Shown one piece after another: positions 2,259-28,352 of a DNA stretch of 64,000 nt. A program made the position numbers and the translations under genes. The DNA comes from Blastocatellia bacterium (lineage in GTDB: Bacteria > Acidobacteriota > Blastocatellia > UBA7656), in NCBI GenBank assembly GCA_963765495.1, contig CAVXWP010000001.1, positions 288,001 through 352,000 on the forward strand, given 5' to 3'. Below the pieces are notes generated by a model. It was given only the letters and a program-made list of their open reading frames with translations. It had not been told where the DNA came from and made no database searches. Position 1 is the stretch's first letter, and every line of letters begins with the position of its first letter.

Positions 2259-3159
2259 ACAAGGCCGATTCAATCTGACAGTTTGAATCGGCCCGGTCCA
2301 GAAGCAGGGGAAAGAACCGGCCCTCGATTTTTCCCCCTTGAGCGATCACCGGAACGCCCTCAAGCAGCGGCTCATTTGAAGCCGATACTACGCCGTCGCG
2401 AAAGACGTTTATTACTGCCCCCCTTCGCGGTCGGTCGGTATCGTTTTCGTAAGAGCCGTGAACCGTCAGAGGATGATGAAACGAAGCCTCGCCCTTTCGT
2501 AATTCGATGGCTATGGGCTGGAACTTGCTCTTTTGCTCTTTGGAAAGAACATCTTCGATAGCCTTCATATCACCCGCGAGTCCCGTAACCGGCAAAAGAT
2601 TCCAGAGGTGGCTCCCCGGTACGTAATGCACGCATCCGTTATCGCGAGTCGAATCGTCGAGCGCTATCCAGCACGACAGATGCGCCATCGGCTGAGTCCT
2701 TGTCCAGTAGGAATAGTCCTGATGCCACGCCACCACGCCTCCATGTCTCGGGGGCTTGCAAAACAACTGGTCGTGCCAGAAACGCACAGGGCCTTCGAGT
2801 AACTGAAAGGCCGGAACCGTGAAGGCCGGATTCCAGAGCAGGTCGTGAAAGCCGGTTGCAATTCGCCACGCCCCGAGAGCATGAAACAGGACTCTTGCGG
2901 GGTCTTTCGATTCGTTGCTGTTGTACTCGTAAAAAAGCTCTCTAAGGGGGTGCGCCGGGTCCATCAATTCATCCAGTTGCTCGCAGAGCAAGTCTACCTG
3001 CTCGGGGGTGAGCATTCTGATTCCGGCCAGATAACCATACTGCCGATAATGCTCGACCTGCTCGCGAGCGAGGCGGAAGCGTGCCCGCTCCTGCCCGGAT
3101 GAAGGCATAACAAACAGATCGCTTACGGGTTTATGATAAGCAGATAAATCTTCTGCCAT
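2242..3159 (-). CDS. Phytanoyl-CoA dioxygenase (PhyH) family Fe(II)/2OG oxygenase
   Basis: WHQD (HxD), WIALDD...NGC...PGSH, distal HGS...R; start set at MAEDL after GAGG. Confidence 0.9.
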
Positions 3160-19922: not shown

Positions 19923-22505
19923 ATGAAGATATCCGGCTCGCAAACAATCAAGCTATCACTCACATTGCTTGCAATGGCGATGATGTTTTGCGCGACCCTT
20001 CCCTGTGGGTCTGCGCGAGCGACCTCGGATCGTAAACGCGAAGGCGCAGATTCTCCGGGTAATCCCGATTTTATCCTCTTCCGTCGAGGCGCGCTCGATA
20101 CTCGCGCAAAAAGAGAATCCGATAGCTCGGCGGCTGATTCGCTGCACATCTCGGCGCTTAGAGAGCCCGGACGAAGGCAATTGCGCGTAGTTCAATTCGC
20201 CGGACCCATCAAGCGCAGGTGGATCGAGCAATTAAAGGCTACCGGCTCCGAGATCATAGGTTATATCCCAAACAACGCATACATAATCCGAAGCAATGCG
20301 GGAGGGCTTGCCCGTATTGCCGCGCTCGACGCGGGTGAATCCGCTGATGATTCGAGGCCCATCCGATGGATGGGGCGCTTTGAGCCCCTACAGAAAATAG
20401 CGCCGGAATTTGATGATCGCGCTGTCGGTCTTAAAGAGAAGGGCCAGGCCGCCGTAGAGATCGAATTGCTCGACACCCCTGACAATAGCGCGGCCATCGA
20501 ATACATAAATCGAATCGCAACAACCGTAAATCAACCGCCCCGGCGGTTCCTCAAATTTGTAGTCGTGTGCGTCACTCTGCCAATCGAGCGGCTGGCCTCC
20601 GTAGCCGACTTCGATGAAGTGCTTTTTATAAACCCCGATCCGGCCCTGTCTCTGCAAGACGAGCGCAGTCTTCAAATAGTCGCCGGTAATCTGATCCCGG
20701 ACCGCACTCAGCCGACAGGCCCCGGCTACATGGGATGGCTCGAAGCTCAGGGTCTAAACTGGGAACCGGATTTCCTGATCGATTTCGCGGATTCAGGTCT
20801 TGATCACGGGTTCACATCAAAGGGGCTTGTTCATCCGGGGTTCCTCGATGCGGAAGGCGAAAGCCGCGTCGCGTATAATGTTAACTACACCAGAAGCGAG
20901 CAGTCGGAAGACATCACAGGTCACGGCACTATGACGGCTTCCATAGCCTGCGGGCGCGGCATAAGCGACCGGACCGATGAGGAAGGCTACATGTACGGGG
21001 TTGGAATAGAACCGAATGCCCGACTTGGCGAGTCGCGTATATTCGATGATTTCGGGGCGCTATCGCTCAAGGTGAGCTATTCGGAAATGATTTCGGCGGC
21101 CTATTCCAGGGGGGCGCGCATATCGAATAATAGCTGGGGCAACGGCAGCAATATCTATAATTCGCTCGCGCAGGAATACGATGCGCGCACTCGCGACGCG
21201 CAATCTACAATCGCGGGCAATCAAGAAATGATCTTCGTTTTTTCGGCGGGCAATCAGGGGCCGGGCGGTCACGTAAGCTCGCCCGGTACGGCCAAAAACG
21301 TCATCACCGTGGCGGCGAGTGAAAACTTTCGCCCCGAAGGAGTTGATTCCTGTGATCTGGACGGGCAAGGGCCGATAGGCCCCGAGGGCGCAGACAACTC
21401 GCTCGACATTCTGAGATTTTCATCCGGCGGGCCGACCGCCGATAACCGCTTCAAGCCCGACATCACAGCGCCCGGCACGCACGTATTTGGCGCGGCGTCT
21501 CAAGCGACTTTCTTTTACGGCAACGGATTGTGCCCCGGCAGAACTCTCTTTAACCCTTCCGGCCAGAGACTCTATACTTGGTCGTCGGGGACGAGTCTTG
21601 CGGCCCCTCACGTGACCGGAGCGGCGGCGCTTGCGCGCAAGTTTTTCGTGATGCGCGATCTGCTTGGAGACAACCGCGCGCCTTCGCCCGCGATGACAAA
21701 GGCATTTCTCGTCAACTCCGCATCTTACCTGACGGGCGAAAACGCGGGCGGCGACTTGCCGTCTGCGCGGCAAGGTTGGGGGCTTCTGGATATGGCCCGC
21801 GCATTCGATGACGGGAGCCGCAGACTGATAGATCAGACCACGGTCTTTACCGAAAGCGGTCAGCATTTCGAGATCAAAGGAGCCATTGCCGACCGCTCTC
21901 GTCCCCTTCGCGTGACGCTTGCCTGGACCGATGCGCCGGGGAGTCTGGCCGGTCCGGCTCTGGTCAACGACCTCGATCTGGAAATCACTGTCGACGGGCA
22001 GACCGTCTATCGCGGGAATAATTTTCAGGGTGAGTTTTCCGTCGCGACAGGTGAGGCGGACCGGCTGAACAATGTCGAATCCATCTATCTGCCTGCCGCC
22101 TCGATACCCGAGGGATCATCGGGCAACTTTACGATCACCGTCCGCGCAGCTAACATAGCGGGCGACGGCGTGCCGGGCAACGGCGATGATCTGGATCAGG
22201 ATTTCGCGCTCGTAGCCTATAACGTCACGGACCCAATCGTTACTCCGCCAAAAAAAGTCCCCACAGTGACCCTTGCGAGCTATGTGAAAAAGGTCCTGAC
22301 CATTACGGGAGAGAATTTCTCAGCCGATGCGAGCGTAGAGGTAAACGGAGAGATCGTCAATCGCGCCTTTACGTTCGACGCCGCGACCAATTCGCTCAGC
22401 ATCAAGAAGAAGTATAAGAAACTTAATCTGAAGAAAAACGATACCAACCAGATCGTCATCATCGAAAAAGGCGAGCGATCTCAAGCCTTCAGCCTGCAAC
22501 TCTAA
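19923..22505 (+). CDS. Secreted S8 subtilisin-family serine protease
   Basis: Triad motifs ADSG, GHGT, SGTSLAAPHV; oxyanion AGN; signal peptide. Confidence 0.93.
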   Translation: MKISGSQTIKLSLTLLAMAMMFCATLPCGSARATSDRKREGADSPGNPDFILFRRGALDTRAKRESDSSAADSLHISALREPGRRQLRVVQFAGPIKRRWIEQLKATGSEIIGYIPNNAYIIRSNAGGLARIAALDAGESADDSRPIRWMGRFEPLQKIAPEFDDRAVGLKEKGQAAVEIELLDTPDNSAAIEYINRIATTVNQPPRRFLKFVVVCVTLPIERLASVADFDEVLFINPDPALSLQDERSLQIVAGNLIPDRTQPTGPGYMGWLEAQGLNWEPDFLIDFADSGLDHGFTSKGLVHPGFLDAEGESRVAYNVNYTRSEQSEDITGHGTMTASIACGRGISDRTDEEGYMYGVGIEPNARLGESRIFDDFGALSLKVSYSEMISAAYSRGARISNNSWGNGSNIYNSLAQEYDARTRDAQSTIAGNQEMIFVFSAGNQGPGGHVSSPGTAKNVITVAASENFRPEGVDSCDLDGQGPIGPEGADNSLDILRFSSGGPTADNRFKPDITAPGTHVFGAASQATFFYGNGLCPGRTLFNPSGQRLYTWSSGTSLAAPHVTGAAALARKFFVMRDLLGDNRAPSPAMTKAFLVNSASYLTGENAGGDLPSARQGWGLLDMARAFDDGSRRLIDQTTVFTESGQHFEIKGAIADRSRPLRVTLAWTDAPGSLAGPALVNDLDLEITVDGQTVYRGNNFQGEFSVATGEADRLNNVESIYLPAASIPEGSSGNFTITVRAANIAGDGVPGNGDDLDQDFALVAYNVTDPIVTPPKKVPTVTLASYVKKVLTITGENFSADASVEVNGEIVNRAFTFDAATNSLSIKKKYKKLNLKKNDTNQIVIIEKGERSQAFSLQL

Positions 22506-22508
22506 GAA

Positions 22509-22590
22509 GTGATTCGTGATACGTGATTCGTGACTTTCAGGCACTGACCTTTTAAAAGGCTTGTCGCTGACTTCACGCATCACGTATCAC
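22509..22590. repeat. 7-mer-periodic inverted repeat (GTGATTC / CACGCAT)
   Basis: GTGATTC GTGATAC GTGATTC GTGAC with TCACGCA TCACGTA TCAC, right after the S8 stop. Confidence 0.8.
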
Positions 22591-22684
22591 TACGGGTTTC
22601 AAGTTTAAATTCCGCAAAATCAGAGAGATAAACCCGCCCGTCAAGGCCGACTATCGTTTGACGCCGCAAGAGACCGAGTTATTA

Positions 22685-22762
22685 AACCCCGGTCCCGGAG
22701 GCCGCGCCGGAACTATAACCGTAGCGGGACAAACCTTTACATTGAAGCAGAAAGCGCCTTGA
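22685..22762 (+). pseudogene. Remnant of a BACON-domain C-terminus
   Basis: Translates NPGPGGRAGTITVAGQTFTLKQKAP*, resembling the BACON end RxGTITVAGQTFTVxQ; no long ORF upstream. Confidence 0.55.
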
Positions 22763-23123
22763 GACTTTCGAACCGAATTGAGGCGCACGGCAATATATAC
22801 CACACAACGAGTAAAAAGGCTGAGTTTTAAACTCGCGATTTAATCTGGCTAAGGCAGCCACAAATCGCCTCGCATTTCGTGGCTGTAAGGGCTGTCTGGT
22901 TATCGCTTATTCCGATCAGATAACCATTTGGGAATCTTCTTCGTTGTGATACTATCTGGGCTGCGCGCTGGGACTGTCATACCGTTGCCAGTTGAACTTA
23001 AAGCGCGCTATCGCGGATTTCATTTTAGAGTTTCTCATACGACGAATGCTTTTCTGAGGCTGGTTAAGGTATGAGATTGCTTCATCAACAACCGTATTCC
23101 AGAGATGACAAGATAGGTGACTT

Positions 23124-26100
23124 ATGAACAGGACATTTTTCAGCATTTCCCGAGGCCCGGCTCTCTTAACATTAAACCTTTTGCTGCTGGTCGCTTTCAC
23201 GCTGGCCCAGTCTGTCGGAGCCAGCGCCGACGATAATTTTACGATCAAATCTTCGGTTATAGCGGGCGGCGGCGGCTCGAGCACGGGCGGCGCACTGGCC
23301 ATTGACGGTACAATTGGTCAAGCCATGGTTGGTATATCAAGCGCAGGAAATTTCTCTGTCGCGGGCGGTTTCTGGAATACACTTACACAAATTCCCGCAG
23401 TCAGCAATTCGATATCAGGGACGATCTCTTATTGCATCGACAACTCAAAGAAAGTCCCCAACGCCACCGTCCAGACTACCAGCGGTTCCCCTTCCGCTTC
23501 CACTACTACTAACGCCTCCGGCTTCTATCAACTCGATAACCTCGGCACTGGCCCTTACACCGTTGCTCCTTCCAAAACCGGTGCCGTCTCCGGCATCTCT
23601 GCTCAGGATATCGGTATCCTCCGCCGCCTCGCCGCTGGCATCGATACCCCCACTCCCTGTCAATCCATCGCTGGCGATACAGATAACAACGGCTCGCTCG
23701 GCGCCCAGGACATCGGCTTCCTTCGAAGATTTGTCGCTCAACTTACTACCACTGGCATCACTGGCTCCTGGAAATTCTCTCCCGCCTCCAAAACCTATCT
23801 TTCCCTCGTCTCTAATCAAACAAACCAGGATTACGATGCCTTGCTGATCGGAGATGTTGACGGCAACTGGACCCCCGCTGCTCCTGATCCTGCTTCATTT
23901 CAGAAGAGTCAGGCTCCTTCGGCCACTAACCTTGCCCTCTCTTTGCCCAGTGTCGTTGCTCCTCCCGGTTCTACTGATGTCTCTATCCCGGTCATGGTTA
24001 ACGGCACTCTCACAAACGGCGATTTCGTTTTGGGCTACACAATCGAGATCAGTTTCGATCCCAGCGTGCTGGTTCCACATTCGCCCTCATTCAACACGAC
24101 AGGGACGGTTTCATCGACCGGGGTCGTCACAGAGAACACGGGTGTGTCGGGGAGGCTCCGACTTGTGGTCGATTTCCAGAATCCGCTGATATTCACAGGG
24201 CAGCAGACGCTGATAATATTGAGGTTCGATGTGGTAGGGACACAGGGACAGATGAGCGGGCTCAACTGGTTCTTCACGGAATTTGGGAGCGGCCCACCTG
24301 CCGTCACCACCACGACTACAAACGGCAACTTCACCGTCACAAGCCCCACTGCCGTAAAAGTCGATGCCTTCAAGGCCACGGGCTTTGACAAGGGCGTATA
24401 TCTCCAGTGGCAGACCGGGTTTGAATCTACTAACCTCGGCTTCAACATCTATCGCCAGCAGGCGGGCAAACTCTCTCTTGTTACGCCTGAAATATTGGCC
24501 GGGTCGGCGCTTTTGACAGGTGACACGCCCTTGCTTGCCGGGCGGAAATATTCGTGGTGGGATAATTCACCCGATAGTAAACAGGACGCGCTCTATTATC
24601 TGGAAGACATTGACCTCAACGGCACAAGGAGCCTGCACGGGCCGATAGTTGCAACCAGAGCATCAGGCAATCCGCCTGCTGGCTCTCGGGCCGAGTTGTT
24701 GAGCCGGATGGGCAGAGGCAAGGCTACAATCAGCGACTACGTCGCTTCCTCCTCCCCTGGCAGCGCCCAACTGGCAACCGTTTCCTCAAAGAAAGGATTA
24801 CAAAACTCCAGGCGAGAGACAGTGCCTGTTGATCTGGCGACCTCCTCTGCCATAAAGATGTGGATAGGCAATAGCGGGCTCTATCGCCTCACTCAGCCGC
24901 AACTGCTGAGCGCCGGCCTCGATTCCGGGATAGATCCGCGACTCTTGCAGATGTATGTCGACGGGCAGGAGGTTCCAATCCTTGTCACTGGCCAGGATGA
25001 CGGAAGATTTGATGCCGCGGACACAGTGGAATTCTACGCTTCGGCAATCGACAGCCCGTTCACCTCGAAGCGGGTCTACTGGCTTGTGGCAGGGACAGTG
25101 GCGGGAAGACGGATAACAAAGGTGACGAGTCCCGGGAAGGGGCAGAGCAACGCTAGTTTTACCTCGACCCTGGAGCGACGAGACAAGACGATCTACTTTT
25201 CGAGTTTGAGGAACGGGGATGAGGAGAACTTCTTTGGGCCGGTCATAGCCTCGCAGGAAGTCGATCAGTCGATAGATGTGAAAGATATGGCAGCGGGAGG
25301 AGGAACTGGGGCAGTGCTTGAAGTGGGATTACAGGGAGTAAGCGCGGTCAACCATCGAGTAAAAGTGAGGTTGAACGGGACGGAGTTGGGAGAGGTAAAT
25401 TACAGTGGGCAGGGAGCAGGAGTAGGGAGATTCACACTCTCAAGCGGGCAACTGGTGGAAGGAAGAAACGACATCAAGATGGAGGGGGTGGGAACAGGAG
25501 GAGATGTGAGCCTGGCCGAGTATGTGAGAGTGAGCTATGAGAGGAGGTACAAGGCGGAAGGAGATGAGTTGAGATTCCGAGCAGAGGGGGGCCAGGAGGT
25601 AAAGATAGGAGGGTTCACAAGCGAACGGATACGAGTATTTGATGTAACGGAGGAAGGGAATGTAGTGGAGATAGGAGGAGCGATAGAAGAGAGCGGGAAC
25701 GGGTATGAGATAGGGATCAAGGTAGGAGGAGCAGGAGAGAGAGAGATGATGGCGATAGAGGAAGGGGAGGTGAGAGAGGTAGGAGAGATGAGAAAGAACG
25801 AGGCGTCGAAGCTGAGAGCGACGAGCCAGGGAGCGGACCTGTTGATAATCACGACGGGAGAGATGGGAGGAAGTCTGGAAGGGTTGAAGGCGCTGAGACA
25901 GAGTCAGGGGATGGCGGTAGCGATAGTGAAGGTGGAAGACATCTATGACGAGTTCAGCCAGGGAGAGAAGACGCCGTATGCGATAAGAGAATTTCTGATA
26001 TATGCGAAGAGGAACTGGAAGAGGAAGCCGGGATATGTGTTGATGGGAGGGGATGCGAGTTACGACCCGAAGAATTATCTGGGAGCGGGGGAATGGGATC

Positions 26101-26861
26101 TGGTGCCGACGAAGTTGGTGGACACGGCGTATCTGGAGACGGCCTCAGATGAATGGATGGTGGACGAGGATGGAGACGGGATAGGAGAGATGGCGATAGG
26201 GCGACTGCCGATAAGGAGCGAGGAAGAAGGGATGAGGATGGTAGGGAAGATAATGAGTTATGAGAGAGGAGTATCGAGGAGGAGTGTGTTATTGGTATCG
26301 GATGCGAATGATGGATACAACTTTGAGCAGGCGAACGAAGAGTTGAAGGGGATGATACCGAAGGGGACGAGGATAGAAGAGGTAAAGAGGGGGCAGATGA
26401 GCGAGGAGGAAGCGAGGGCGAGGGTGATAGGAGGGATAAACGAAGGGCAGGCGATAGTGAGTTATGCAGGGCACGGGTCGGTGGATATATGGAGAGGAGA
26501 GATATTGAGGAGCGAGGATGGAGAGATAATGAGGAATGGTAATCAGTTGAGTGTATTTCTGATGATGACGTGTTTGAACGGATATTTTGAGGATCCGATG
26601 TTGGAGAGTTTGGGAGAGGCGATGATGAAGGCGGAGAGGGGAGGAGCGGTAGCGGTATGGGGGTCGAGCGGGATGTGTGAAGCGGGAGAGCAGGCGGCAG
26701 TGAGCAAGGAGATGATGAGGGAGCTAAACAGTGTGGAGGGGTTGACGAAGAAGAAGGTGACGATAGGAGAAGCGGCGAGGAGGGCGAAGGGGAGGATAGG
26801 AGATGTGGATGTAAGGAGGACGTACGTGTTGTTGGGAGACCCGACTATGCGCCTCAGATAA
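23124..26861 (+). CDS. Secreted C25 (gingipain-like) cysteine peptidase with dockerin-like and cohesin-like modules
   Basis: Signal peptide; duplicated AQDIG.LRR with GDTDNNG; cohesin-like segment; YDEFS, GDASYDP, IGRLP, YAGHG (His), MTCLNG (Cys), LLGDP. Confidence 0.88.
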   Translation: MNRTFFSISRGPALLTLNLLLLVAFTLAQSVGASADDNFTIKSSVIAGGGGSSTGGALAIDGTIGQAMVGISSAGNFSVAGGFWNTLTQIPAVSNSISGTISYCIDNSKKVPNATVQTTSGSPSASTTTNASGFYQLDNLGTGPYTVAPSKTGAVSGISAQDIGILRRLAAGIDTPTPCQSIAGDTDNNGSLGAQDIGFLRRFVAQLTTTGITGSWKFSPASKTYLSLVSNQTNQDYDALLIGDVDGNWTPAAPDPASFQKSQAPSATNLALSLPSVVAPPGSTDVSIPVMVNGTLTNGDFVLGYTIEISFDPSVLVPHSPSFNTTGTVSSTGVVTENTGVSGRLRLVVDFQNPLIFTGQQTLIILRFDVVGTQGQMSGLNWFFTEFGSGPPAVTTTTTNGNFTVTSPTAVKVDAFKATGFDKGVYLQWQTGFESTNLGFNIYRQQAGKLSLVTPEILAGSALLTGDTPLLAGRKYSWWDNSPDSKQDALYYLEDIDLNGTRSLHGPIVATRASGNPPAGSRAELLSRMGRGKATISDYVASSSPGSAQLATVSSKKGLQNSRRETVPVDLATSSAIKMWIGNSGLYRLTQPQLLSAGLDSGIDPRLLQMYVDGQEVPILVTGQDDGRFDAADTVEFYASAIDSPFTSKRVYWLVAGTVAGRRITKVTSPGKGQSNASFTSTLERRDKTIYFSSLRNGDEENFFGPVIASQEVDQSIDVKDMAAGGGTGAVLEVGLQGVSAVNHRVKVRLNGTELGEVNYSGQGAGVGRFTLSSGQLVEGRNDIKMEGVGTGGDVSLAEYVRVSYERRYKAEGDELRFRAEGGQEVKIGGFTSERIRVFDVTEEGNVVEIGGAIEESGNGYEIGIKVGGAGEREMMAIEEGEVREVGEMRKNEASKLRATSQGADLLIITTGEMGGSLEGLKALRQSQGMAVAIVKVEDIYDEFSQGEKTPYAIREFLIYAKRNWKRKPGYVLMGGDASYDPKNYLGAGEWDLVPTKLVDTAYLETASDEWMVDEDGDGIGEMAIGRLPIRSEEEGMRMVGKIMSYERGVSRRSVLLVSDANDGYNFEQANEELKGMIPKGTRIEEVKRGQMSEEEARARVIGGINEGQAIVSYAGHGSVDIWRGEILRSEDGEIMRNGNQLSVFLMMTCLNGYFEDPMLESLGEAMMKAERGGAVAVWGSSGMCEAGEQAAVSKEMMRELNSVEGLTKKKVTIGEAARRAKGRIGDVDVRRTYVLLGDPTMRLR

Positions 26862-26888
26862 CGCAGAATGCCGCAATTAAATTGGAGA

Positions 26889-26923
26889 GGGGCTGATGAG
26901 TGGTATATCAACTCATCAGCCCC
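26889..26923. terminator. Probable bidirectional terminator
   Basis: Perfect 13-bp stem GGGGCTGATGAGT / ACTCATCAGCCCC between convergent genes. Confidence 0.75.
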
Positions 26924-26951
26924 TTTCTAATGAAAGTAAATCCGACTCCTG

Positions 26952-28352
26952 CTAGGGCCGGATGTTGTAATACCTGATCTTGCTGTTGAGCGTAGTCGTA
27001 TTCATTCCCAAAAGTTTTGCGGCGCGCGACTGATGGCCGCCTGTGATTTCCAGTGCGCGACGGATCAACTCGATCTGAAAGCGATTCACTTCATCATAGA
27101 AAGAGACGCCGCGCGACAAATCCATCTGCGATGCCAGGGTTTGCCCGCCCGTCTGCGCGGCGGCTTTTTGAGGATTGAGCACTTCTTCGCGCAAATCGCT
27201 CCGCTCGATGATCGAGCCGCGCGCTATTATAACGGCGCGCTCGATAACGTTTTCAAGCTCGCGCACATTGCCCGGCCAGTTGTACGCTTCAAGCAGCGAC
27301 AGGACCTCCGGGCTGATCTGATCGTATAGTTGCCTCGCGTTTTCCGCCGAGTACTTGCGAATGAAATGTTTTGCGAGCGGAAGAATATCCTCCCGGCGAT
27401 CACGCAAAGGAGGAAGGCTGATCTGAATCACGTTTAGCCTGTAATAGAGGTCTTCACGGAAAGCGCCTTCATCAACCGCCTGTTTAAGGTCTACATTGGT
27501 CGCGGTAATAACGCGCACATCCACCTGCCGACGAGTGGTGTCGCCTAAGGGTGTGAAATCGCGTTCCTGAATTACTCTGAGAAGTTTCGCCTGCGTCTCC
27601 ATCGAGATAGTGCCCATCTCGTCGAGGAAGATCGAGCCGCCGTCGGCTACCTCGAAGTATCCCTTTTTGGCCGCCACCGCGCCTGTGAATGCGCCGCGAA
27701 CGTGACCGAACAACTCCGATTCGAGCAGTTCGGTTGGGAGGTTCGCGGAGTTTACGGTTACAAAAGGCTTGTCGGCTCGCTGGCTGTGATTATGAATGGC
27801 GCGGGCGATCAATTCCTTGCCCGTACCGCTTTCGCCCGTGATGAGCACCGTCGAACGCGCGGGCGCTACCTGCTCGACGAACGAGAGAATATCGAGCATC
27901 TTGTTGCTGCGCGCTATTATCTCTTTAGCGGCGGTGCTGCGTTTGAGCGTATGTCTGAGCACGTGGCGCTCTTCGTCCTTGCGTCGCCGTCTGATGCCAG
28001 CCGCGATCAGCCCGAGGATTTCTCTGTTATCGAAAGGCTTCTTTATACAGTTGAACGCGCCGCGCTGCCACGCCGATATTGCCGTATCGAAGGTGGCGTA
28101 AGCGGTGATCATTATGATCACTGCTTCGGAGTCGAGTTTTAGTATTTCTTCGAGTGTCCTGAGCCCGCCCATGCCGGGCATCGAGACATCGAGCAAGACT
28201 ACGTCAACGGGCCGTTGCTGAAATTTATCTATCCCCTCTTCTCCCGTGCGTGCAAGGTCTACCTGATAACCTTCTCCCGTGAGCAGGCTTTCAAGCACAT
28301 CGCGCATAACTTCCTCGTCGTCCACGACAAGGATATTCTCTTTTTTTGCCAT
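26952..28352 (-). CDS. Sigma54-dependent response regulator (NtrC/AtoC family)
   Basis: Receiver ILVVDDE...LLDVSMP; GESGTGKE; GAFTGA; WPGNVREL; Fis-type HTH. Confidence 0.95.
   Translation of the reverse strand: MAKKENILVVDDEEVMRDVLESLLTGEGYQVDLARTGEEGIDKFQQRPVDVVLLDVSMPGMGGLRTLEEILKLDSEAVIIMITAYATFDTAISAWQRGAFNCIKKPFDNREILGLIAAGIRRRRKDEERHVLRHTLKRSTAAKEIIARSNKMLDILSFVEQVAPARSTVLITGESGTGKELIARAIHNHSQRADKPFVTVNSANLPTELLESELFGHVRGAFTGAVAAKKGYFEVADGGSIFLDEMGTISMETQAKLLRVIQERDFTPLGDTTRRQVDVRVITATNVDLKQAVDEGAFREDLYYRLNVIQISLPPLRDRREDILPLAKHFIRKYSAENARQLYDQISPEVLSLLEAYNWPGNVRELENVIERAVIIARGSIIERSDLREEVLNPQKAAAQTGGQTLASQMDLSRGVSFYDEVNRFQIELIRRALEITGGHQSRAAKLLGMNTTTLNSKIRYYNIRP

Follow-up and report, generated by a model that had tools for sequence, protein, structure and literature searches.

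Within the window, by which we mean the whole 64,000-nt stretch of DNA analysed, one gene on the forward strand encodes a C25 family cysteine peptidase of the secreted type. Its frame is open and uninterrupted over 1245 codons, and the protein carries a hydrophobic N-terminus, a CarboxypepD_reg domain (PF13620, residues 96-155) and a Peptidase_C25 domain (PF01364, residues 907-1244; 252.9 bits) that matches the whole Pfam model (positions 2-374 of 374). The nearest solved structures are those of PorU (6za2) and gingipain R (1cvr), with an E value of 8.6e-08 to PorU, so that the similarity to solved members is distant. As the initial annotation stated, the frame is intact and the catalytic residues are retained, the His of the AGHGS motif and the Cys of TCLNGY both lying in columns that are invariant across 13 family members, and the product is apparently, to judge from its sequence, an ordinary, functional peptidase. 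The parts of the gene and its surroundings are as follows.

23124..26861, forward strand: C25 family cysteine peptidase gene, intact, secreted-type, 1245 aa (ORF, translation, Pfam)
23394..24624, forward strand: shorter tract common to a third gene (blastn, 92% identity)
23400..26863, forward strand: tract common to the second genomic copy (blastn, 99.48% over 3464 nt)
23454..23984, forward strand: pyrimidine-polarised block, codons 110-286 (108 of 116 four-fold sites C or T)
24066..24251, forward strand: short purine-leaning patch, in the stretch first described as turning G-rich (30 of 40 four-fold sites purine)
24252..25043, forward strand: middle part, unpolarised to slightly pyrimidine-leaning, duplicated too (58 of 147 four-fold sites purine)
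25044..25355, forward strand: transition zone (42 of 55 four-fold sites purine)
25356..26843, forward strand: purine-polarised block, codons 744-1239, spanning the catalytic C25 domain (194 of 199 four-fold sites purine)
26844..26861, forward strand: unpolarised margin, the last five codons and stop (ACT, CGC, CTC; 0 of 3 four-fold sites purine)
26889..26926, forward strand: inverted repeat with a 13-bp stem, then TTT (read from the sequence; unlisted by the consensus scan)

The inverted repeat, likely an intrinsic terminator, lies outside the homology tract and is unpolarised.

Composition of the polarised blocks

The initial annotation described a blockwise polarisation between C/T and G/A within this gene. 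Its base counts are exact (28 C and 9 G at 23461-23520; 52/60 purines at 25741-25800 and 49/60 at 26401-26460), and the polarisation is real and stronger than claimed: the four-fold sites pass from 8/116 purine (C 62, T 46) in the 5' block to 194/199 (G 123, A 71, C 4, T 1) in the 1.5-kb 3' block. The GC skew is -0.31 at 23450-24095 (purine share 0.385), +0.24 at 24096-24290 and +0.57 at 25100-26840 (purine share 0.719), with a peak of +0.74 in a 200-nt profile, while the genome-wide standard deviation is 0.083 (72,912 windows of 500 nt). The background at four-fold sites comes from 4,765 genes derived from ORFs, a set of crude ORFs rather than called genes, examined in 29,023 windows of 150 codons; its purine share has a mean of 0.475 and a standard deviation of 0.073, and the blocks lie far outside it, with z = +6.6 to +7.2 for the 3' block and z = -5.5 for the 5' block. 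Among blocks of at least 1.9 kb with |skew| > 0.4, the 3' block and its second copy have the strongest skew, and they rank among the longest of all blocks with |skew| > 0.4; the block at C8 350401-353000 is longer (2.6 kb) with a weaker skew (0.47), and the skew is as high as 0.72 in a block of 1.3 kb at C9 40201-41500.

The purine block as a whole consists of G 0.43, A 0.30, T 0.16 and C 0.11, and all three codon positions are shifted. The codons AGG, GGA, ATA and GTA, which had been singled out as looking rare in neighbouring genes, are each used above their genome share: AGG makes up 0.56 of Arg codons (genome 0.10), with AGA at 0.31 (genome 0.12), and the values are 0.54 vs 0.20 for GGA, 0.86 vs 0.32 for ATA and 0.44 vs 0.18 for GTA. 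C falls to 0.09/0.15 at codon positions 1/2, compared with about 0.20/0.25 in nine unpolarised paralogs. The encoded protein has an excess of E, G, R, K and M, and the reported enrichment in E/G/R/M holds against the closest protein, P0002, relative to which there are net gains of 32 E, 24 G, 11 R and 8 M and net losses of 18 A, 16 T, 13 P and 13 L. This halving of C at positions 1 and 2, together with the directional amino acid changes, indicates an effect at the level of DNA and not one confined to the wobble position.

Homology tracts and repeats across the genome

This genome (G000) has the polarised portion of the gene in two copies. The second copy, at C7 562206-565669, is fused to a different N-terminal part in a 1915-aa gene, and the 18 differences between the copies (13 transitions, 5 transversions; 1 within the purine block) are mostly third-position transitions, so that the purine or pyrimidine class is kept. 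The third gene, at C7 411499-410268 on the minus strand, shares the shorter tract, and its own C25 tail is unpolarised; a metagenome contig diverges from the window at 24624, the right end of this shorter tract. Contigs built independently from a public soil metagenome run, possibly that of the source sample, extend over 23000-26947, for the most part at 99% or more (9 of 12 pieces at 99% or more, 3 at 95-99%), and a 1654-nt piece over 24585-26238 shows 10 differences relative to the window, with some of these agreeing with the second copy in the genome.

The positions of the blocks relative to the ends of homology are consistent among genes. In the three genes with the C25 module the left tract edge falls at codon 92, 762 and 1022, and in all three contexts the pyrimidine block starts 18-21 codons inside it, which places the block mid-gene in the other copies (codons 780-895 of 1915 and 1043-1158 of 2167). 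On the right, the stop codon is the homology end in the tuf, 708-aa and C25 pairs, and the purine blocks end 5-8 codons before it, leaving unpolarised the last about 8 codons in tuf and about 5 in the 708-aa gene. The view that blocks follow domain modules needs amending: they track homology-tract edges instead, with margins of about 18 codons on the left and 5 on the right in the gene described here.

Across the genome, 28 of 44 polarised blocks lie wholly inside repeats (at least 90% identity over at least 400 bp), which make up 3.4% of the sequence. Eight of the remaining 16 were inspected: five belong to transposases, as genes or as fragments, and the other three to an I-set/HYR module that three surface proteins have in common at the C-terminus. 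At least six transposase families show the same pyrimidine-then-purine order, and so do the two EF-Tu genes, a radical-SAM gene present twice and C-terminal modules that surface proteins share, and in every polarised gene seen the sense strand runs from 5' pyrimidine to 3' purine. All of these genes, transposases included, are intact. Blocks in transposases are rich in A or T and those in host genes in G or C, but the polarisation in each case sets purine against pyrimidine, which favours discrimination by the geometry of mispairs over damage to particular bases. The rRNA operon, present in two copies, is unpolarised, as expected under RNA constraint, and lends no support.

To measure polarity regardless of orientation, we subtracted the purine share of the left 500 nt from that of the right 500 nt. 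The difference is positive in 38/45 repeat families, above 0.1 in 17 and below -0.1 in 2, compared with 59.9%, 2.3% and 0.4% of 3,616 unique genes (binomial p = 6e-4 for positive values and 8e-17 for values above 0.1, with copies within one family not independent); taken alone, this statistic does not separate place in the repeat from place in the gene, since the two predictions agree in sign. In a metagene profile, the purine share of 4,611 unique genes stays level at 0.46-0.49, whereas that of 117 genes inside repeats is 0.40 and 0.36 in deciles one and two and climbs to 0.66. The substitution spectrum, proposed earlier as a check, agrees in direction and is modest in size: with singletons polarised by majority rule, the right third has Y>R 42/5840 vs R>Y 33/8666 and the left third R>Y 26/6068 vs Y>R 23/8418, a lean in the expected direction of only 1.6-1.9-fold that comes mainly from three families.

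The two tuf copies encode an identical protein, and their DNA is 99.16% identical exactly across the coding region. In both, 107-108 of 116-117 four-fold sites in codons 141-386 are purine, and the purine share in codons 1-100 is 0.22-0.27. The neighbouring highly expressed genes, those for ribosomal proteins, fusA, rpoB and rpoC, are flat (mostly 0.40-0.51, full range 0.30-0.56), which speaks against expression as the source of the tuf polarity. In other classes of the phylum, tuf is uniformly purine- or pyrimidine-rich at four-fold sites (26 rows), and it is purine-rich throughout in the family members G021 and G008; codon preference could therefore explain part of the tuf signal.

Paralogs, relatives and outgroups

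The peptidase is a member of a large Blastocatellia-specific expansion with variable N-terminal parts and up to 32 matches per genome. In G000, tails with a near-identical partner have purine shares of 0.96 (99.9% identity) and 0.72-0.73 (91%), and the seven unique paralogs have 0.46-0.61. In three genomes the most purine-polarised C25 tails are pairs with a near-identical partner. The pattern is present in G015, an independent complete genome of the same family, where the sole pair with a homogenised tract (96-98% identity from nt 3000 to the end, 59-80% before) has tails of 0.84-0.85 and a pyrimidine-leaning left end (0.31-0.41), with nine other C25 genes at 0.45-0.70, and where the purine share of multi-copy DDE transposase families is 0.10-0.34 over the first quarter and 0.69-0.79 over the last quarter. 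Homogenised pairs also rise from 5' to 3' within the tract in G003 (about 0.40 to 0.80) and G009 (0.15 to 0.45-0.60; this pair, at 99.6% identity, has the pyrimidine block and no purine block), and a metagenome-assembled genome from another study, L025, displays the same pattern. The association has its exceptions: 100%- and 99.6%-identical young pairs are only weakly polarised, the tails of two G013 pairs (86% and 83% identity) reach only 0.63-0.66 and 0.55, and unique C25 paralogs also climb somewhat toward the 3' end (0.6-0.8 in some).

Outside the class, multi-copy families of the Acidobacteriota G042, G056 and G076 (the last a family with at least 150 matches) do not rise, the differences being -0.22, -0.19 and -0.13. 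In E. coli, tufA, fusA and IS30 are flat, while insB of IS1 rises from 0.52 to 0.95 (84 sites) and yagA from 0.30 to 0.76, and a weaker form of the polarity may be general for some mobile elements. A search of 5.8 billion proteins, 41 related genomes and two contig collections gave no relative of the purine block above 57% identity, and among 102 homologous tails from other sources the skew is at most 0.36, compared with 0.56 here.

Explanations and known systems

The initial annotation suggested, as one possibility, a local strand-specific mutation or gene-conversion process on modular secreted-protein genes. The link to gene conversion and multi-copy DNA is supported by the 99.48% second copy, the concentration of blocks in repeats and the near-identical partner pairs; the restriction to secreted modular proteins fails, since EF-Tu, the radical-SAM gene and the transposase families are polarised too. 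On balance, we think that a lineage-specific bias at the DNA level, tied to recombination or gene conversion between copies, probably explains the polarity; the link to recombination is a correlation, from which we infer the cause. Transversions would build up with strand polarity wherever two or more copies in one genome stay alike, most likely through ectopic recombination or gene conversion. Each DNA strand would become pyrimidine-rich toward the 5' end of the tract and purine-rich toward its 3' end. At unconstrained sites the change would approach completion with the G+C share roughly kept (C replaced by G, T by A), and at constrained sites amino acids would be pushed toward purine-rich codons (A>G/E, T>R/K, Q>E, D>E, L>M/I/V). 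The mechanism that we prefer lies in the strand asymmetry of recombination intermediates, in which the invading ends are 3' single-stranded tails and the 5'-ended strands are synthesised anew: mispairs of purine with purine and of pyrimidine with pyrimidine may form or be corrected unequally on the invading or new strand, and repeated conversion would fix one base class on each side of the tract. The sharp, nearly pure blocks of some families count against a simple model with uniformly placed breaks, which predicts a smooth gradient.

A dedicated repeat-targeted mutator, a bacterial counterpart of RIP that senses duplicates and strikes one strand at a time with transversions while selection keeps the synonymous or tolerable changes, would fit the repeat association and lineage restriction likewise. 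Strand-coordinated mutation clusters arise from damage to single-stranded DNA, and the blocks resemble them; the singleton spectrum leans the expected way; and a second MutS paralog with a mismatch-binding domain, present in 17/25 family genomes, 1/15 in the rest of the class and 0/5 outgroups, could belong to such a system. We nevertheless regard it as unlikely. The polarised genes are all intact, so the process does not inactivate repeats; a base-specific signature is absent, both purines being gained and both pyrimidines lost; the homogenised pair of G003 is graded although the second MutS was not found there; and the weak polarity of the 100% and 99.6% pairs suits slow accumulation better than a burst at duplication.

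Selection on the transcript, through purine-only or pyrimidine-only wobble bases that favour unstructured mRNA, Rho loading (by C-rich 5' and G-rich 3' parts), R-loops, pausing or a decoding split between G34 and U34/C34 tRNAs, was raised in part by the initial annotation and fits poorly. The constant sense-strand order would suit it, as would the folding of the purine block, half as strong as that of background coding sequence (-0.142 vs -0.293 kcal/mol/nt, sd 0.056), but the two blocks have no specific complementarity (duplex -418 vs shuffles -427 +/- 8), and the AGGAGG load of the purine block, 7.4 per kb vs 0.22 per kb in genome ORFs, is Shine-Dalgarno-like in a motif usually selected against inside genes. 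Polarity does reach tuf, which is expressed more highly than any other gene, but the genes for ribosomal proteins, fusA, rpoB, rpoC and the 4,611 unique genes are flat, and some of the strongest polarity is in transposases, whose expression is usually poor. The genome encodes an ordinary set of tRNAs, in which all classes are present and NNR and NNY codons are served by different tRNAs, yet codon positions 1 and 2 and the protein are shifted too, the pyrimidine block starts at a repeat edge mid-gene (codons 780 and 1043) and not at the mRNA 5' end, and strong polarity among C25 genes occurs only in homogenised pairs. We give this explanation little probability.

A mosaic origin, with blocks imported by horizontal transfer or recombination from donors of other codon usage, is very improbable: the gene combines tracts that it has in common with various paralogs, insertion sequences are mobile and tuf is uniformly purine-rich in some other Acidobacteriota, but the nearest relative of the purine block in the collections searched has only 57% identity, none of the 102 homologous tails nears its skew, we know of no genome with about 97% purine at four-fold sites, and import cannot yield the constant left-pyrimidine, right-purine order (38/45 families) or the edge margins. 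An assembly, polishing or binning artefact is scarcely credible, even though the blocks sit in repeats, where assemblies are weakest, because open frames and invariant residues are kept, unlike under random error, the block is found again, at 99% or more, in independent contigs of the public run, and the pattern recurs in the assemblies G015, G003, G009 and L025.

The recombination-linked bias makes the odd composition of the C25 gene, on the best reading, a local sign of a process acting on repeated DNA in this Blastocatellia lineage. We found no account of such a bias in the literature searched, and the polarity in the repeats of this soil bacterium suggests a so far undescribed bias in the recombination or repair of its repeated DNA.

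The protein itself resembles gingipain and PorU (MEROPS C25) in its full-length Pfam match and its His and Cys motifs, and differs from the solved members in its distant similarity and its lineage-specific expansion. The near-identical tuf copies and the C-terminal modules common to paralogs recall the concerted evolution of tufA/tufB, but known gene conversion of tuf and of surface modules homogenises without base-class polarity, and E. coli tufA is flat. Fungal RIP hits duplicated sequence only, and its individual events are strand-biased; it produces C>T transitions, raises A+T and destroys genes, whereas here we see transversions, a preserved G+C share and intact genes. Purine loading (Szybalski's rule, Forsdyke) and the skews of replication and transcription likewise place an excess of G+A on the mRNA-synonymous strand, which lowers RNA self-pairing; these effects are genome-wide, follow gene orientation or replichore and amount to a few percent, while in this genome the profile of unique genes is flat, the sign is reversed in the 5' blocks, and purines occupy as much as 97% of four-fold sites. 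Kataegis and break-induced replication give kb-size strand-coordinated clusters that switch sign across the initiating site and are tied to recombinational repair. The blocks are alike in size and in the coordination of changes on one strand, but known kataegis clusters are single events with a cytosine-deaminase signature (C>T, C>G), whereas we observe that both purines take the place of both pyrimidines and that the state is an equilibrium of evolution, maintained across genera. GC-biased gene conversion, abbreviated gBGC, acts as a non-adaptive drive in recombination tracts, thought to be due to unequal repair of heteroduplex mismatches, and here too synonymous sites are pushed far from mutational equilibrium and amino acid composition is dragged along; gBGC favours G/C over A/T and is strand-symmetric, whereas the bias described here keeps third-position G+C, sets purines against pyrimidines with opposite sign at the two tract ends, and acts in the intragenomic repeats of a bacterium.

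The C25 peptidase gene and its base composition

The gene under study belongs to a 7.3-Mb genome of 17 contigs (G000), and the window is positions 288001-352000 of its contig C1. The frame, which the initial annotation had described as intact, runs open through 1245 codons. The gene, the two blocks discussed below and the surroundings are as follows.

23124-26861, +, C25 gene, 1245 codons: hydrophobic N-terminus, CarboxypepD_reg domain, Peptidase_C25 at residues 907-1244
23454-23984, within the gene, pyrimidine block
25356-26843, within the gene, purine block
3' of the stop codon, a hairpin followed by TTT, read from the sequence
neighbouring genes: a subtilase; a sigma-54 response regulator/activator on the opposite strand; a PD40/amidohydrolase protein

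Judged from its sequence, the product is a member of peptidase family C25, with the family model PF01364 matched over the catalytic domain (252.9 bits against a cut-off of 23; model positions 2-374 of 374, residues 907-1244) and both the histidine and the cysteine present. These two residues, the His of AGHGS (residue 1117) and the Cys of TCLNGY (residue 1150), which we take to be the catalytic dyad, are kept as had been stated: their columns are invariant in all 13 aligned family members, and the motifs align with the GHG and TC of PorU. The closest solved structures in the PDB are PorU (6za2, E = 8.6e-08) and gingipain R (1cvr, E = 4.1e-06). A promoter and terminator scan of 22400-27100 gave no score beyond shuffle expectation.

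The base counts first reported for the gene were all exact on recount. The GC skew peaks at +0.74 in 200-nt windows, and the purine share of 25100-26840 is 0.719. At four-fold degenerate sites the split between purines and pyrimidines is nearly absolute, and the skew claimed there stands out from the genome background of 0.475 (sd 0.073, 29,023 windows).

Purines at four-fold sites of the C25 gene
Segment; purine sites/all sites
23454-23984 (pyrimidine block); 8/116
24066-24251; 30/40
24252-25043; 58/147
25044-25355; 42/55
25356-26843 (purine block); 194/199
last five codons of the gene; 0/3

The G+C content of these sites remains at about 0.60-0.70 in both types of block, as in the genome, such that the 3' block reflects a shift of C to G and of T to A, and the 5' block the reverse. 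Codon positions 1 and 2 of the purine block are likewise shifted, and the reported enrichment of the protein in E, G, R and M holds: the purine block codes for more E, G, R, M, K and I and for less A, T, P, L and Q than P0002, the closest protein found, to which it is 57% identical. The density of AGGAGG is 7.4 per kb in the purine block versus 0.22 per kb in the ORFs of the genome, the folding energy is about half of the usual, and the composition is probably of little help to expression. On the minus strand, the purine block carries long antisense frames with many S, L and P codons (window 25535-25852 and 26543-26911; C1 313443-314144 and 313957-314844), 234 and 296 codons in length; they result from the composition, and a gene finder might mistake them for genes. 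That the region might be an assembly artefact had been raised as an objection, and it is answered by independently assembled public soil-metagenome contigs that match it, mostly at 99% identity or above, the run behind these contigs being possibly the source sample.

Polarised blocks and repeated DNA

The suggestion that the skewed blocks are multi-copy modules is borne out: window 23400-26863 recurs on contig C7 at 99.48% identity, there as the 3' portion of a gene of 1915 codons with a different N-terminal part. The two copies differ at 18 sites, mostly by third-position transitions, and only one of these lies in the purine block. Part of a third gene is 92% identical to window 23394-24624, and the C25 tail of that gene is unpolarised. 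Among the 11 paralogs of the C25 core in the genome, strong polarisation is found only in the two near-identical tails (0.96 purine at four-fold sites of the last 500 codons); another pair, with 91% identity, has 0.72-0.73, and the seven unique tails have 0.46-0.61.

Segmentation of all ORF-derived genes of the genome gave 44 polarised blocks, 26 purine and 18 pyrimidine. The proposed restriction to genes for secreted modular proteins does not hold, as blocks also occur in tuf, radical-SAM and transposase genes:

C2 435716-436903 (L109) and C2 454392-455579 (L131), the two tuf genes, switching near codon 140
radical-SAM gene, two copies of 708 codons: codons 12-200 with 79/83 pyrimidine, codons 303-698 with 145/153 purine
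transposases of the IS110, IS4, IS5-like, ISAs1-like and DDE_Tnp_4 types
a three-copy family of about 1460 codons
an I-set/HYR C-terminal module common to three surface proteins

In tuf, purines occupy 107-108 of the 116-117 four-fold sites of codons 141-386, and their share in codons 1-100 is 0.22-0.27. Repeats of at least 90% identity and at least 400 bp make up 3.4% of the genome and wholly contain 28 of the 44 blocks. Of the other 16 blocks, eight were inspected, with five falling in transposase genes or fragments and three in the shared HYR module; of the further eight, at least one, at C2 165793, is probably a wrong-strand ORF. Two stretches of about 0.85-1.35 kb, at C9 32651-33500 and C2 165401-166750, are 69% and 52% adenine on one strand and are unlike the purine blocks. 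Contig ends also carry 99.8% identical repeats that are unpolarised, of 12.7 kb (C11 16947-29652 and C7 842956-855649) and 8.9 kb (C11 1-8937 and C10 160744-169681); they probably stem from overlaps in the assembly or from a large duplication of recent date.

On the sense strand of every polarised gene, the pyrimidine side is 5' and the purine side 3'. To express this for any segment of the genome, we subtracted the purine share of the left 500 nt from that of the right 500 nt, a statistic that needs no orientation because its sign is equal on both strands.

Polarity statistic in G000
Class; n; positive; above 0.1; below -0.1
Repeat families of at least 700 bp; 45; 38; 17; 2
Unique genes; 3,616; 59.9%; 2.3%; 0.4%
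Random segments; 4,570; 50.3%; 1.9%; 1.8%

In the 117 genes within repeats, the four-fold purine share starts at 0.40 (first decile) and 0.36 (second decile) and climbs to 0.66; the mean slope is 0.33, and 42% of these genes have slopes above 0.3 and none below -0.3, figures that overstate the number of events because copies of the same family are not independent. The two-copy rRNA operon is unpolarised; functional RNA resists polarisation.

The edges of the blocks follow the edges of homology. In the tuf, radical-SAM and C25 genes the homology between copies ends at the stop codon, and the purine block ends 5-8 codons short of it. The pyrimidine block of the C25 module starts 18-21 codons inside the left homology edge, which falls at codon 92 of the C25 gene, codon 762 of the C7 gene and codon 1022 of the third gene; the pyrimidine block therefore follows the tract and not the start of the mRNA, although these three cases count as one evolutionary observation, because they are copies of one module.

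Of the other readings, translational selection would account for the blocks through the tRNA supply or high expression. The tRNA set is ordinary, with 49 genes predicted by ARAGORN that provide G34, U34 and C34 tRNAs in nearly every four-fold box (Ala-CGC and Arg-GCG are absent among the 49, and ACG replaces the latter), and the highly expressed genes next to tuf show no polarisation: fusA, rpoB, rpoC and the ribosomal-protein genes lie mostly at 0.40-0.51, with a full range of 0.30-0.56. We therefore reject translational selection as the cause. ARAGORN also found no tRNA-Arg(TCT) or tRNA-Leu(TAA) in this genome, where AGA makes up 12% of Arg codons overall and 31% in the purine block; the two genes may have been overlooked or left unassembled. 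A strand skew due to replication or transcription, including purine loading, would be expected to act by orientation or expression, and no general effect of either is seen; across 4,611 unique genes the four-fold purine share stays level at 0.46-0.49, with a mean slope of +0.006. As for import of the purine block from a close relative, no donor above 57% identity emerged among 5.8 billion proteins, 41 related genomes and two contig collections. The nearest relatives of the gene come from Blastocatellia or Acidobacteriota, and the nearest full-length locus (L034), 72% identical to P0002, is unpolarised. Long-range pairing of the pyrimidine block with the purine block is no better than in shuffled sequences and is likewise rejected.

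Polarity in other genomes

Homogenised tracts in three other genomes are cases independent of the G000 module. In G015, a second complete genome of the same family, a single C25 pair is homogenised, with 59-80% identity up to nt 3000 and 96-98% from there to the end. Its purine share is 0.31-0.41, a pyrimidine lean, directly after the start of the tract and 0.74-0.91 deeper into it. The share rises from about 0.40 to 0.80 in a tract of 98.8% identity in G003, and from 0.15-0.27 to 0.45-0.60 in one of 99.6% identity in G009, the pair in the latter having no purine block. Two pairs in G013, 86% and 83% identical, are unpolarised, and some purine lean at the 3' end is seen in unique C25 paralogs as well. 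Long purine-only 3' parts also occur in C25 genes from other genomes and a metagenome (L025, JAFGIY010000213.1, from about codon 700 to 1440; L004, on C32 of genome G019; and L058).

For tuf, 9 of the 13 family genomes in which the gene was found exhibit a clear step from pyrimidine to purine, two a weaker one, and two (G021 and G008) are purine-rich throughout, and codon preference may thus account for some of the tuf signal. The step occurs in most genera of the family, at a varying position. Within the family, tuf may be a poor neutral marker. In other Acidobacteriota classes (26 tuf entries, two of them from genomes flagged as unpublished, which make no difference to the outcome), the four-fold sites are either uniformly purine-rich or uniformly pyrimidine-rich.

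In the multi-copy DDE transposases of G015 the share climbs from 0.10-0.34 to 0.69-0.79, and in three other Acidobacteriota the corresponding families shift by -0.13 to -0.22. A 383-aa DDE transposase has at least 150 matches on the two contigs of the outgroup G076, one of these three, a massive expansion of insertion sequences with no purine/pyrimidine polarity. In E. coli, tufA, fusA and IS30 are flat, and IS5 barely rises. Polarity is not general to insertion sequences or repeats. In E. coli K-12 (L163), the share rises from 0.52 to 0.95 in insB of IS1 (257923-258426) and from 0.30 to 0.76 in yagA, an integrase-core gene (280829-281983), the E. coli numbers being small; a weaker polarity may exist in some mobile elements elsewhere.

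A proposed strand-polar bias and its relation to known processes

Within a tract each strand is purine-rich toward its own 3' end, a polarity that would fit a strand-asymmetric step around the breaks that initiate recombination. Left of a break, the invading 3' tail is formed by the top strand and resynthesis falls to the bottom strand; right of it, the roles are swapped. We infer this break geometry for the tracts, together with two possible routes to the bias. In one, purine-purine mispairs of the invading strand would be corrected preferentially and pyrimidine-pyrimidine mispairs would escape, which is the ranking of mispairs by MutS. In the other, the repair polymerase would tend to put purine-purine mispairs into the new strand. 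The underlying bias could be one of fixation or of mutation. Singleton changes, assigned by majority rule in five informative multi-copy families, show only a 1.6-1.9-fold bias in the expected direction, a result that tells against the reading, as do the unpolarised G013 pairs, the G009 pair, the 3' purine lean of unique C25 paralogs and the uniformly purine- or pyrimidine-rich tuf genes. Transposase blocks are A/T-rich and host blocks G/C-rich, and both are polarised; a bias of base class rather than of a specific base favours discrimination by mispair geometry over chemical damage.

As for the genes that might be responsible, NucS/EndoMS was not found in G000 (97.9% complete), which has two MutS homologs with a MutS_I domain:

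C15 168455-168781, in an 845-aa frame
C9 303484-303819, in a 902-aa frame

A second MutS paralog with the mismatch-binding domain is present in 17 of 25 family genomes, in 1 of 15 from the rest of the class and in none of five outgroups, a distribution that fits the family, but G003 lacks it and exhibits the gradient nonetheless, hence the paralog is not needed there. Mean transposase polarity is +0.08 in five genomes that have it (16 usable genes) versus +0.07 in five that do not (only 3), too few genes for a comparison, and we regard the paralog as a lead only.

The observation is solid, and the process is probably a recombination-associated bias that, as far as the literature searched extends, has not been previously reported as a force shaping genes. 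The literature searched holds no account of repeats whose codons are polarised by purine and pyrimidine, of gene conversion biased in this way or of relevant codon usage in Blastocatellia. We tentatively propose, as a possibility somewhat less likely than not, that in this family all DNA recombining between copies is subject to a strand-polar purine/pyrimidine drive that comes from the machinery of recombination or mismatch handling, and that this represents a new class of biased gene conversion.

If this were true, a neutral or even costly molecular drive would override codon usage almost completely and with predictable geometry, even in the essential tuf, leaving about 97-100% of synonymous sites in a single base class, partly rewriting the codons of EF-Tu against translational preference and altering the amino-acid make-up of enzymes. 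Non-adaptive change in protein composition would have to be reckoned with. Expression levels and horizontal transfer would be misjudged where they are inferred from codons, phylogenies from tuf or from paralogous families would be affected, and so would gene finding, because polarised blocks open long antisense frames. The blocks would also be a natural record of which strand invaded or was resynthesised on each side of a recombination event, that is, a sequence read-out of strand polarity in bacterial recombination intermediates and of the unequal treatment of purine-purine and pyrimidine-pyrimidine mispairs.

Several known processes can be set against this pattern. Deaminase-type mutation clusters have a defining feature that is missing here. 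The targets of diversity-generating retroelements have a short variable region, close to a reverse transcriptase, that differs from a template repeat specifically at adenines, whereas here the A-rich block spans 1.5 kb, the 18 differences are mostly third-position transitions, and the genes alongside code for a subtilase, a sigma-54 activator and an amidohydrolase. Repeat-induced point mutation, like the present process, targets duplicated DNA, but it is marked by C>T changes, A+T enrichment and inactivation, whereas here the change of base class needs transversions, G+C is kept and the ORFs are intact. GC-biased gene conversion is the closest known process. It differs in its preference for G/C, since four-fold G+C here stays at about 0.60-0.70 and A- or T-rich transposase blocks are polarised too, and in its strand symmetry, the signs at the two ends of a tract being opposite here (8/116 versus 194/199). 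It resembles the present case in that the signal is confined to conversion tracts (28/44 blocks in 3.4% of the genome, with repeats polarised and unique genes not), with homogenised paralog pairs polarised in G000 and G015 and gradients inside tracts in G003 and G009, and both have the power to overrun selection.
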